64,000 bases of DNA, from positions 29,040-93,039 of the IMG/VR virus record IMGVR_UViG_3300029319_008653. One strand, written 5' to 3'. Under the pieces are notes generated by a model. It worked only from the letters and a program-made list of their open reading frames with translations. It was not told where the DNA came from and made no database searches. A program made the translations under genes and the position numbers. Source of the DNA: a virus. Shown here in pieces: positions 17,792 through 29,680 of this stretch (its first letter is position 1; each line of letters starts with the position of its first letter).

Positions 17792-18037
17792 TTATTTATT
17801 CTCCTCTTTCTGTCTTTTTAAGAATTCCATTGTAATTAATCTGGTACTCCAGGTAGGGTGCTCTTCTGCAATCTGCGCTCTAATAGCTGCTTCCGATGAA
17901 TTAGAACTTGTAAATAAAGAAGTTAGTTGTTTAACTAATTTAGATTTAGTTAATCTTCTATCTAGTTCTACACCTTTTGTACGACCTAGAGCCTCCAGTT
18001 CTTCTTTCGATAGTTTTTTTAAATCCTCTGCTGTCAT
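17792..18037 (-). CDS. small helix-extension-helix (Rho-N/LEM-like) protein
   Basis: LKKLSKEELEALGRTKGVELDRRLTKSKLV; start 18037 follows AATAAATA at 18043-18050. Confidence 0.6.
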   Translation of the reverse strand: MTAEDLKKLSKEELEALGRTKGVELDRRLTKSKLVKQLTSLFTSSNSSEAAIRAQIAEEHPTWSTRLITMEFLKRQKEENK

Positions 18038-18086
18038 ATTATTATTTATTGTTGCAACGTATATTTTAATTGATAAGTAATAATCT

Positions 18087-18287
18087 ATGACAACATTAAT
18101 TACATTAGCAATATTCGTGGCAGGTTTTATCGTTGGTGCACTAGTTACTAGAAAAAATCTTAAAGAGGTTAATGCTGTAGTAGCTGAAGCAAAAGAATTT
18201 GCGGCAAAGGTCGATGCTAAGCTCGACGATTTGCAGGCTCCAAAAAAGCCAGCCACGCGTGGACGTAAACCAAAGTCTACGAAATAA
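18087..18287 (+). CDS. small single-TM membrane protein
   Basis: N-terminal hydrophobic helix, helical middle, basic tail. Confidence 0.65.
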   Translation: MTTLITLAIFVAGFIVGALVTRKNLKEVNAVVAEAKEFAAKVDAKLDDLQAPKKPATRGRKPKSTK

Positions 18288-18315
18288 TTAAAAACTTATC
18301 TAAGATAAATTATTA

Positions 18316-18338
18316 CCCCCGCTATGCGGGGTTTTTTA
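18316..18338. terminator. intrinsic terminator
   Basis: CCCCGC-tat-GCGGGG followed by a T-run, between convergent units. Confidence 0.8.
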
Positions 18339-18413
18339 TTGATCATAATGTCTGAGTACAGCTGTACCTATAACCATTAAAGATAATAGTATAAAAAAAG
18401 CATCTATAGTCAT
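18336..18413 (-). CDS. 25-aa membrane peptide (not in ORF track)
   Basis: MTIDAFFILLSLMVIGTAVLRHYDQ; its ATG overlaps the TGA of the 18410 frame (ATGA). Confidence 0.45.
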   Translation of the reverse strand: MTIDAFFILLSLMVIGTAVLRHYDQ

Positions 18414-18739
18414 TTTTTATTTCCCACCCGGGGTAAAGTAGAATCCGACGATAGCTCCCAAAGTGGCGATCGAGACAAGAGAAATGTGTCCCGTTGTGAT
18501 AGTCGTTGTGATATCACTCCCCGAGGGGAATTTAACAAGTCCCCAAAGGAAGGTGAAGGCTTCTTTTGATTCTGGAGGGGTGAATGTGACCAATTCGACT
18601 CCGGGGAAGAGGGTGCAGAGAATTGAAATGGCCGCGAAGTTTGACATCCCGATAAGAGCAATAAGCCTACGAGTATGACGGGTAAACATACCATGGTCTG
18701 CATTTGCATCACCAAAAACTGCTTTTTGAAAGTCAACAT
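18410..18739 (-). CDS. overprinted Ser/Pro-rich lipoprotein (Rz1/o-spanin-like candidate)
   Basis: +1 frame inside 18417..18896; hydrophobic stretch plus lipobox LLLLSG-C; codon bias switches at the Cys. Confidence 0.55.
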   Translation of the reverse strand: MLTFKKQFLVMQMQTMVCLPVILVGLLLLSGCQTSRPFQFSAPSSPESNWSHSPLQNQKKPSPSFGDLLNSPRGVISQRLSQRDTFLLSRSPLWELSSDSTLPRVGNKK

Positions 18740-18896
18740 CTGCTTTATGCATAGCCATGTCTCTAACAAGCTCTCTCTTGGCTGCTGTTTCTTTAGCTGC
18801 TGTAATTCCTTGGAAAATACCCCCCAGTATTTTAAGCATTGAGCCCATACCAGTTGCACCAAGCGTCGATAATAACATTGTAATAAGTCCTGACAT
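18417..18896 (-). CDS. multi-TM membrane protein, holin-like
   Basis: Three hydrophobic segments ending LGAIVGFYF, as in 3TM holins; late promoter upstream. Confidence 0.6.
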   Translation of the reverse strand: MSGLITMLLSTLGATGMGSMLKILGGIFQGITAAKETAAKRELVRDMAMHKADVDFQKAVFGDANADHGMFTRHTRRLIALIGMSNFAAISILCTLFPGVELVTFTPPESKEAFTFLWGLVKFPSGSDITTTITTGHISLVSIATLGAIVGFYFTPGGK

Positions 18897-18920: not shown

Positions 18921-18936
18921 ATATAAATATTTATAT
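18921..18936. promoter_or_regulatory. palindromic bidirectional late promoter
   Basis: ATATAAATATTTATAT contains TATAAATA on both strands between divergent genes. Confidence 0.65.
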
Positions 18937-28705: not shown

Positions 28706-29680
28706 ATGAGCAAATATTTAATTACTGGTATAACTGGGTTTGCAGGTCCCCATCTAGCTAACCTACTTCTTGAGGAGGGCCATGAAGTTCATGGCATAGT
28801 ACGAACACCCAATGGTAGAGAGCTTGATTTAGTAGATATAATTAGCGTAGAGAATTTAGAAAAAATAAAGTTTCATCACATCGATCTTAAACATTATTAT
28901 GGAGTAAAAAAATTATTTGATAATTATGAATTTGATGGGGTATTTCATTTAGCAGCTCAATCACACCCACCAACGAGTTTTAAAGATCCAGTTTTAACTT
29001 GGGAAGAAAATGTCAACGGTACAGTAAACTTAATAACAGCTCTCGAAGGCAGTAAGACAAGATTTATGTTCTGCTCTACTAGTGAAGTATACGGAGACAC
29101 TTGTAAAGATGTAGGATTATTAAAAGTAGATACACCATTAATACCTAGTAACCCCTATGGTACTTCTAAAGCTGCAATGGATATGTATGTAAGAGAGCGC
29201 AGTGCTAATGGTTATTTAGATGGTTTCGTAACTAGAGCATTTAGTCATACTGGTCCTCGTAGAGGTAAGATTTTTAGTATTAGCTCAGATGCATATCAGA
29301 TTGCTAATATGGTTTTAGGAAGACAAGAATTAGTTTTAAAAATAGGAAATCTACAAACTGAAAGAGTAGTTATAGATGTAAGAGACTGTGTAAACGCTTA
29401 TTATAAATTAATGTTAAATCCTGAAACTAAAGGAATGGCATTTAATGTTTGCGGAAGCGATGTTCATAAAATGCAGCACTACACAGATCTACTAATTGAA
29501 AAATCTGGTTTAAAAGGAGTAGAACAAAAAATTTATGAACCTTACTATCGACCTATTGATATACAGGTTCAGATAGGAGATTCAAGTGAACTAACTAATA
29601 TGACAGGATGGAAGCCTGAAATATCTCTAGAACAAACAATGGGAGATTTATTATCATATTGGGTAGATAAACTCAAATGA
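28706..29680 (+). CDS. GDP-mannose 4,6-dehydratase / GDP-sugar reductase family
   Basis: TGITGFAG, HLAAQSH, STSEVYG, PYGTSK, HTGPRRG, DVRD. Confidence 0.88.
   Translation: MSKYLITGITGFAGPHLANLLLEEGHEVHGIVRTPNGRELDLVDIISVENLEKIKFHHIDLKHYYGVKKLFDNYEFDGVFHLAAQSHPPTSFKDPVLTWEENVNGTVNLITALEGSKTRFMFCSTSEVYGDTCKDVGLLKVDTPLIPSNPYGTSKAAMDMYVRERSANGYLDGFVTRAFSHTGPRRGKIFSISSDAYQIANMVLGRQELVLKIGNLQTERVVIDVRDCVNAYYKLMLNPETKGMAFNVCGSDVHKMQHYTDLLIEKSGLKGVEQKIYEPYYRPIDIQVQIGDSSELTNMTGWKPEISLEQTMGDLLSYWVDKLK

Follow-up and report, generated by a model that had tools for sequence, protein, structure and literature searches.

A second protein, predicted to be a lipoprotein, is very probably encoded in the +1 reading frame of a gene for a three-helix membrane protein in the IMG/VR virus record IMGVR_UViG_3300029319_008653, of which a stretch of 64,000 nucleotides (positions 29,040 to 93,039 of the record; hereafter the window) was analysed. 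The gene containing the additional frame will be called the outer gene, and its product the outer protein. The explanation that we favour overall, with slightly better than even confidence, is that this DNA is read twice and that the second product would be the outer-membrane lipoprotein arm of a spanin-like complex. The elements concerned are the following:

18417 to 18896, minus strand: outer gene, an open reading frame (ORF) of 159 codons (159 amino acids), ATG at 18896, TAA at 18419-18417
18410 to 18739, minus strand: nested ORF of the predicted lipoprotein precursor, 109 amino acids if read from ATG 18739, conserved in homologues
18647 to 18739, minus strand: predicted signal peptide, with a Lys-Lys n-region, a Leu-rich h-region and Leu-Ser-Gly at lipobox positions -3 to -1
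18644 to 18646, minus strand: lipobox Cys (+1), the predicted acylation site, codon TGT
18413 to 18646, minus strand: mature chain, 78 amino acids, rich in Ser, Pro and Gln
18458 to 18466, minus strand: Pro-Leu-Trp motif, mature residues 61-63

The +1 ORF as a whole spans 18964 to 18410 on the minus strand, 184 codons when counted from a TTG, and closes with the TGA at 18412-18410. Besides ATG 18739, alternative starts are available at TTG 18715, GTG 18712, and ATG 18709, 18703 and 18694. The lipobox of the window reads LLLLSG followed by Cys, whose codon is composed of the TG of the outer Met84 codon and the first base of the codon that follows. The original prediction, made from the DNA letters and their ORFs, had proposed a lipoprotein gene overprinted in the +1 frame of a multi-transmembrane gene. 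All of its coordinates proved correct, and an open frame, a lipobox and signals of selection were indeed found.

The host contig is viral, 93 kb long and about 44% complete, with a guanine plus cytosine (GC) content of 31%. It carries T4-type portal, major head and tail-sheath-stabiliser genes together with nrdA/B, and its NrdA is 56% identical to those of Pelagibacter phage Mosig and cyanomyophages; on sequence grounds, the phage is a marine T4-like one. Homologues were collected from viral, metagenome and metagenome-assembled genome contigs as 245 loci with a full-length outer gene (labelled with L-numbers, e.g. L081), corresponding to 174 distinct outer-gene copies. Codon and stop analyses were performed on a close set of 67 distinct homologues, with 67-97% protein identity to the window protein. 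Protein collections hold 394 relatives of the outer protein, none of which is named or has a Pfam annotation. A tblastn search of the INPHARED phage records with three family members gave no matches, and the family was not found in Pelagibacter phage Mosig, P-SSM7 or Syn9 by a hidden Markov model search; no cultured carrier was found in these records and genomes. Gene callers overlook the nested gene almost entirely: of 5.8 billion catalogued proteins, a single entry represents this frame.

In a six-frame scan of the 93-kb contig, the nested ORF was the only one with a lipoprotein-type N-terminus followed by a mature chain of at least 30 residues. Each of the first 80 homologues has 96-161 open codons in the +1 frame, compared with 32-89 in the +2 frame. 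The close set of 67 contains no +1 stop in outer columns 55-134, while stops occur in 14 upstream columns, in many lineages; in these homologues, the nested ORF ends either right after Ser-Pro-Leu-Trp-Glu or near the outer stop. Both the open +1 frame and the lipobox, the conservation of which had been suggested as a check, are retained by the homologues.

The suppression of synonymous variation that had also been suggested as a check is apparent as well, in that the pairwise proportion of synonymous differences (pS) of the outer frame falls over the nested ORF. In the 67 homologues, pS is 0.70-0.81, i.e. saturated, over codons 1-65, drops to 0.36-0.43 where the +1 frame encodes the signal h-region and lipobox, and is 0.56-0.66 from there to the end. 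At the level of single codons, Thr77 of the outer protein is encoded by ACT in 66 of the 67 genes, Ala82 by GCT in all of them, and Gly85 by GGG (63 genes) or GGC (4 genes), but never by GGA or GGT, so that the +1 frame reads Leu, Leu and Gly/Ala. The Cys is kept in 67/67, and the outer residue following Met is Ser, Cys or Leu, with a codon that always begins with T or C. Similarly, among the outer codons spelling Pro-Leu-Trp, position 146 is NCC in 60/67, Thr147 is ACT in 59/67 and Leu148 is TTG or CTG in 57/67, while these two triplets make up 12% of the Leu codons elsewhere. Codon entropy is 0-0.33 bit at the lipobox, Leu-core and Pro-Leu-Trp sites, as against 1.8-2.0 bit at invariant N-terminal Gly, Ala and Thr residues, for which all four synonymous codons are used. 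The basic n-region is retained through the outer Phe-Gln-Lys codons or, where a stop intervenes, through an inserted Met-Thr-Arg-Lys-Arg.

Base composition is also affected. The GC content is 0.47-0.49 at 18400-18700 and about 0.26-0.35 in the flanks, and the frequency of C at third positions of outer-gene codons is 0.34 in the overlapped part and 0.07 in the other part. Averaged over the 67 homologues, whose flanks have 36% GC, the corresponding frequencies are 0.35 and 0.13. Dual coding accounts for both features, because an outer NNC gives in the +1 frame NCN, which is never a stop and encodes Ser, Pro, Thr or Ala. The C-rich tract, read in the original prediction as a sign of selection on both frames, is therefore a family-wide property; a recombinant patch from a GC-richer donor could be ruled out, since the C-rich third positions are common to the 67 homologues in AT-rich contexts.

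The nested ORF, counted as present when a hydrophobic leader and [AGS]-Cys precede 30 or more mature residues, is kept in 168 of the 174 distinct homologous genes (156 recognized by a strict regular expression, 12 by eye); of the remaining six, two have Glu at lipobox position -1 and four have no nested lipoprotein ORF. An independent replicate is provided by a clade of 154-residue outer proteins, approximately 35-40% identical to that of the window, in which the same nested ORF is present. Here, the nested ATG is fixed at nucleotide +139, with GGGAGG 9-12 nucleotides upstream. In 42 genes of this clade, +1 stops are found only at codons up to 40 or from 131 onwards, thus bracketing the nested ORF, and outer-frame pS is 0.71-0.89 before codon 55, 0.48-0.58 at codons 56-130 and 0.67-0.69 thereafter. 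In this clade and in the L217 group, the outer-gene codons that spell Pro-Leu-Trp lie about 10 codons closer to the start of the gene than they do in the window's clade, which indicates that it is the motif itself that is kept.

It is conceivable that no second protein exists, and that the open +1 frame and the frozen sites reflect an RNA element, the codon preferences of a membrane-protein gene or chance. The start codon is indeed variable in the window's clade. When synonymous codons are shuffled within genes, the median probability of a stop-free core is 0.047 per sequence, but individual sequences reach up to 33% of the trials. However, the frozen sites spell a Leu-rich core, [GA]-Cys and Pro-Leu-Trp precisely in the +1 frame, the suppression matches the ORF boundaries in both of the distantly related clades, and the 154-residue clade has an ATG with GGAGG. 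In addition, free-standing lipoprotein genes replace the nested one where it is absent (L081 and L155, see below), and no other lipoprotein-like ORF occurs in the six frames of the contig. We consider this explanation very improbable.

By its sequence, the window precursor conforms to the pattern of signal peptidase II substrates, with a basic n-region, a hydrophobic h-region and a lipobox [LVI][ASTVI][GAS]-C. The 168 mature chains are 49-99 residues long, with a mode of 65, and contain 24% Ser, 12% Leu, 11% Gln and 10% Pro; the mature chain is probably unstructured. Among 29 diverse chains that were aligned, only Cys1, Pro61, Leu62 and Trp63 never vary. Residue +2 is Gln in the window and Ser in most relatives, the residues recorded across the 168 chains being Ser, Val, Leu, Ala, Gln and Arg, and never Asp. 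The nested protein thus shares with o-spanins the small predicted lipoprotein, the Pro-rich chain of 49-99 residues and the absence of Asp at +2. It has no match in Pfam and only one in PHROG, to phrog_8971 (E = 0.073), confined to residues 17-37 of the signal peptide, and by sequence it is not a member of the o-spanin families known to these two databases.

The outer protein has hydrophobic helices at approximately residues 2-28, 78-96 and 135-154. A first AlphaFold2 run gave a mean predicted local distance difference test (pLDDT) score of 55, and a run with 54 diverse sequences aligned gave a pLDDT of 83 and a predicted template modelling score of 0.61. In the model, a helix at 2-50 (hydrophobic to about residue 28) is followed by a short helix, a helix at 67-96, a four-stranded sheet at 101-134 and a helix at 135-154. 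There are 9 Lys/Arg in residues 29-77 and 2 in residues 100-134; therefore, according to the positive-inside rule, the predicted topology is N-out/C-in, with the 29-77 segment and the C-terminus cytoplasmic and the beta-sheet loop periplasmic.

The original prediction had described this gene as holin-like. Scans of the window outer protein and three close homologues against Pfam and PHROG gave no matches, ten distant members scanned in the same way matched no holin family, and two profile searches of protein collections returned no Pfam-annotated relatives. Structure comparisons of the model (Foldseek against PDB and BFVD, and VIA-align wide) yielded just matches to long helices or with E > 0.09, so that the outer protein has no fold assignment. 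A lead to PF11351 (GTA_holin_3TM) came from an atlas, at rank 21 and with 14% of the members of that cluster; it was not confirmed by profile searches or by the Pfam scans of distant members. The C-terminus is merely Gly-Gly-Lys(Arg), and neither a charged cytoplasmic tail nor an adjacent endolysin, the hallmarks of holin genes, was seen in the loci examined. The outer gene could be placed in none of the known holin or i-spanin families, and the name holin, which in the absence of a structure or family match is based on the helix count only, is unsupported.

Even so, the three-helix protein might be a holin, in which case the lipoprotein would either act as o-spanin with an i-spanin encoded separately or regulate the timing of the holin, and the nesting would serve co-expression only. 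Three transmembrane helices in a predicted N-out/C-in arrangement are found also in class I holins, and the weak PF11351 lead points in the same direction. About half of the loci have a transmembrane/coiled-coil protein encoded nearby on the same strand; in the 154-residue clade such a gene immediately precedes the three-helix gene, and in the L019 group one immediately follows it, with an Rz-like match. On the other hand, such a neighbour is absent in the window, in L081 and in half of the loci, and changes between relatives that are 97% identical, while the lipoprotein is tied to the three-helix gene even when it is not nested. The conservation of the outer protein (67-97%), its cytoplasmic helical segment of about 50 residues and its conserved beta-sheet loop are atypical of holins, as is the lack of a charged tail and of any holin family match. 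A holin therefore appears improbable.

The loci without nesting provide further information on this association. The +1 frame of the L081 outer gene is riddled with stops, and a separate lipoprotein gene of 88 codons lies downstream with a TAATG overlap; its product has a textbook leader, and Pro-Ala-Leu-Trp near the end of the chain. In the 221-kb contig L155, the +1 frame is also closed, and a lipoprotein gene of 67 codons, whose product ends in Pro-Pro-Leu-Trp-Gln-Ser-Trp, is located about 130 nucleotides upstream of the three-helix gene. Thus, when the lipoprotein is not inside the three-helix gene it stays beside it, and has a similar C-terminal motif. The other frames of the free-standing genes hold no remnant of a three-helix protein, and searches with the L155 and L081 proteins for further separated examples returned those contigs only. 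In a tree of the outer proteins, nested forms are found on both sides of the midpoint root, with the non-nested ones among them; the L081 and L155 branches are weakly supported. According to Kongari et al., no spanin family mixes embedded with separated or overlapped layouts (PMC6139136). In L167, a second, free-standing lipoprotein gene (L167:5729-5998) occurs just upstream of the three-helix gene, in addition to the nested one, and a downstream gene codes for a 121-residue transmembrane/coiled-coil protein with weak matches to a 'lipoprotein' PHROG and to Rz-like PHROGs.

Three further features of the window flank the gene pair:

18336 to 18413, minus strand: ORF of a 25-residue hydrophobic peptide, whose ATG (18413-18411) overlaps the nested TGA (ATGA)
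18315 to 18332, no strand: GC-rich hairpin, terminator-like on both strands, closing the three-helix/lipoprotein unit (minus) and the gene of a 66-residue transmembrane protein (plus)
18922 to 18935, no strand: palindromic TATAAATATTTATA, a T4-type late-promoter motif on both strands

The palindrome TATAAATATTTATA lies 31 nucleotides ahead of the ATG of the three-helix gene (18896, minus strand) and 6 nucleotides ahead of that of a NUDIX gene (18935, plus strand), and may be a shared divergent late promoter of the two. The motif TATAAATA is not enriched in the AT-rich window (22 occurrences, 25 expected), so that only its recurrence upstream of homologues is meaningful: it is present within 100 nucleotides upstream in 34 of 122 homologues of the T4-like clade, often 5-8 nucleotides before the ATG.

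The 25-residue peptide had been considered the third product of a compact lysis/envelope cassette. This proposal is weakened by the comparison, because a homologue of the peptide (75% identity) was found only in L002, and the downstream slot swaps single-transmembrane genes. In L001, whose outer gene is 97% identical, the slot is occupied by a different gene for a 115-residue transmembrane protein. Pfam and PHROG scans were uninformative for the peptide and for many neighbours. The slot after the three-helix gene is a hot spot of small single-transmembrane genes (L001, L003, L015, L017, L019, L040 and others), and its contents differ between near-identical phages, including peptides of 25, 30, 40 and 42 residues and the 115-residue protein, among others. 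A family of about 94 residues, phrog_18771, occurs there in 57 loci and 106 copies, often in tandem. In the L019 group, the slot contains a 73-residue protein that overlaps the outer stop and weakly matches the Rz-like spanin phrog_739 (6e-5); this type of protein carries a Val-Val-[Ala/Gly]-Cys box.

In general, the commonest neighbours are small single-transmembrane or coiled-coil proteins, two families of which are upstream in the 154-residue clade; the phrog_18771 family and the 66-residue protein described below are also among them. At L087:3066-4001, and in the same region of other loci of this clade, three small membrane-protein genes directly precede the three-helix gene. They code for a transmembrane protein of about 50 residues with a basic tail and for two proteins, of about 77 and about 106-111 residues (the latter phrog_20984), with a transmembrane domain and a coiled coil. 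Their stops and starts overlap and the large terminase gene precedes them, an arrangement resembling a lysis cassette without a recognizable enzyme. In the podovirus-like contigs L082 and L087, the three-helix gene stands beside the large terminase gene and a holin-like gene with two transmembrane segments; T7 keeps 18.5/18.7 in a comparable slot by the large terminase.

Convergent with the three-helix gene is the gene (18087-18287, plus strand) of the 66-residue protein, which matches phrog_3879 (1.8e-7, function unknown) and has homologues within about 2 kb in 25 of the first 80 loci. The protein has an N-terminal transmembrane domain, an amphipathic helix and a Lys/Arg-rich tail, a shape that recalls small holins with one transmembrane domain, of the T7 gp17.5 type. 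On the opposite strand, it is overlapped by a 154-codon ORF (17792-18256, minus strand), of which only the C-terminal 80 or so codons (from about 18034) look genuine; these encode a SAP/Rho-N-like helical domain with weak PHROG matches, located beside the 66-residue gene in 11 loci.

Taking these elements together, the following mechanism may be proposed. According to the comparative evidence, the DNA at 18739 to 18410 (minus strand) is read twice, in frame 0 as the C-terminal two thirds of the three-helix inner-membrane protein and in the +1 frame as the lipoprotein, which would be made by internal initiation on a shared, probably late, mRNA. After export, the precursor would receive its acyl group on the Cys and be cut by signal peptidase II, and the absence of Asp at +2 would direct it to the outer membrane. 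Its Ser/Pro/Gln-rich chain of 50-80 residues would hang into the periplasm and offer the C-terminal Pro-Leu-Trp to a partner, most likely of the inner membrane: either the three-helix protein, through its periplasmic beta-sheet loop, or a flanking single-pass protein with a coiled coil. Together, the two proteins would link the outer to the inner membrane and function during lysis in the manner of a two-component spanin, the lipoprotein being the o-spanin-like arm. An o-spanin function is plausible from the sequence features of the lipoprotein, and an o-spanin-like role in lysis is our best guess, to which we give about an even chance. The surroundings of the gene are also lysis-like, with the late-promoter motif ahead of many T4-like members, the predominance of small single-transmembrane/coiled-coil neighbours, the Rz-like match in the L019 group and the position by the large terminase gene in podovirus-like contigs. 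A prediction of the complex between the outer protein and the mature lipoprotein gave a score of 0.00, with a partner pLDDT below 50, a result that speaks neither for nor against binding. It is possible, although we consider it distinctly less probable, that the pair represents a new class of two-component spanins, with a three-pass N-out/C-in inner subunit bearing a small periplasmic beta-sheet domain, and a long, unstructured outer-membrane lipoprotein that would span the periplasm and dock through its C-terminal Pro-Leu-Trp.

It should be noted that several observations weigh against a spanin-like pair. As to the lipoprotein itself, the starts in the window's clade are variously ATG, GTG or TTG, 16-34 codons ahead of the Cys, with none in 3 of 67 genes, and no clear Shine-Dalgarno sequence is apparent in the window. 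Some members of the 154-residue clade have poor residues at lipobox position -3, and Pro-Leu-Trp is absent from 15 of the 168 chains. The free-standing and nested lipoproteins show weak similarity apart from the motif, with a best E of about 1e-4 in a tiny database. In L236 and L246, an intact nested ORF reads Leu-Leu-Ser-Glu-Cys, with Glu at -1 because the outer Gly codon is GGA; either these are decaying copies or acylation is not always required. As to the partner, the outer protein is not a type II protein with an N-terminal transmembrane domain and a periplasmic coiled coil, as i-spanins are. As to the lysis context, the loci examined revealed no endolysin in the vicinity of the gene, and the 28 commonest neighbour clusters include no enzyme; moreover, the endolysin families PF00959, PF13539 and PF01510 are absent from the 44%-complete contig, and SleB-type PF07486 from five large related contigs. 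Finally, neither a nested nor an adjacent lipoprotein was found in L166 and L170, and the gene lies between portal/scaffold-like and capsid genes in L169, and between tail-fibre-like genes and the tail sheath in L170. Such slots among structural genes are also used by phages for accessory cargo genes.

Some of the same observations would be expected if the lipoprotein were real but had no role in lysis, and instead modified the envelope or excluded superinfecting phages, masking a receptor or blocking DNA entry, alone or with the three-helix protein. This is the main rival explanation, although it appears rather unlikely. It would suit a small phage lipoprotein of no known family, the presence of the module in very different phage types and among structural genes, the lack of a nearby endolysin in the loci examined, and the retention of the three-helix gene without any lipoprotein in L166 and L170. 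T4 exclusion genes, however, are expressed early, and the T4-type late-promoter motifs upstream do not fit such genes. In addition, an unstructured Ser/Pro-rich chain with a C-terminal docking-type motif and a strict inner-membrane linkage would be less expected of a folded receptor blocker than of a spanin arm, and one lineage, the L019 group, has an Rz-like neighbour. The small outer-membrane lipoproteins that phages encode outside the classical lysis cassette (T5 Llp, phi80/N15 Cor and lambda Bor) are comparable in kind. However, T5 Llp, phi80 Cor and lambda Bor are folded proteins from free-standing genes, expressed early or from the prophage, while here the gene is nested, has late-promoter motifs upstream, and specifies a low-complexity product linked to an inner-membrane protein.

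For a spanin-like pair, the closest parallels are lambda Rz/Rz1 and T7 gp18.5/gp18.7. They have in common with the present pair a small lipoprotein encoded entirely within the +1 frame of a membrane-protein gene, with a short, Pro-rich mature chain that is probably unstructured and is conserved at its C-terminal end, as well as probable late expression and NNC/NCN dual coding. The mature chain of Rz1 has about 40 residues, whereas the nested one is longer, mostly 65 residues. Rz has a single N-terminal transmembrane domain and a long periplasmic coiled coil, in contrast to the three helices and the predicted periplasmic beta-sheet loop of about 35 residues of the outer protein. Unlike the lambda and T7 spanins, the nested protein matches no spanin PHROG except at the E of 0.073, over the signal peptide only. 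In lambda, Rz and Rz1 interact via their C-termini (PMC6139136).

A resemblance to T4 PseT.3/PseT.2 can also be seen in the T4-like myovirus background, the unclustered lysis genes and the pairing of a lipoprotein with an inner-membrane protein, and L081 and L155 show the separated layout; however, no homology was detected, and the present family mixes embedded and separated layouts. As for class I holins (lambda S105) and PF11351, they are, like the outer protein, small, phage-borne and equipped with three transmembrane helices, predicted N-out/C-in. The outer protein differs in that it has no profile match, is conserved to an unusually high degree, and combines a long cytoplasmic helical segment and the conserved beta-sheet loop with a C-terminus that has no charged tail; no adjacent endolysin was seen.

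Embedded lipoprotein genes are a textbook oddity of the lambda-type spanins. The present results indicate that the same nesting trick occurs in an unrelated gene for a multi-pass membrane protein, where it persists even among homologues whose outer proteins share only about 35% identity, and that the nested arrangement spans several types of ocean phages. They also provide a clean natural example of dual coding, in which individual synonymous sites of the outer gene can be traced to the lipobox and to three motif residues of the second protein. Because the family holds both nested and free-standing lipoproteins, how gene nesting evolves can be followed in a single family. Marine T4-like cyanophages have been listed as spanin-less, and the criteria of that survey did not consider other inner-membrane topologies (PMC6139136), which makes the family worth testing as a candidate. 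If the spanin reading is true, a new spanin class would exist in both embedded and separated layouts, and it would provide many uncultured marine T4-like, T7-like and P2-like phages with the means of outer-membrane disruption that is missing from them.

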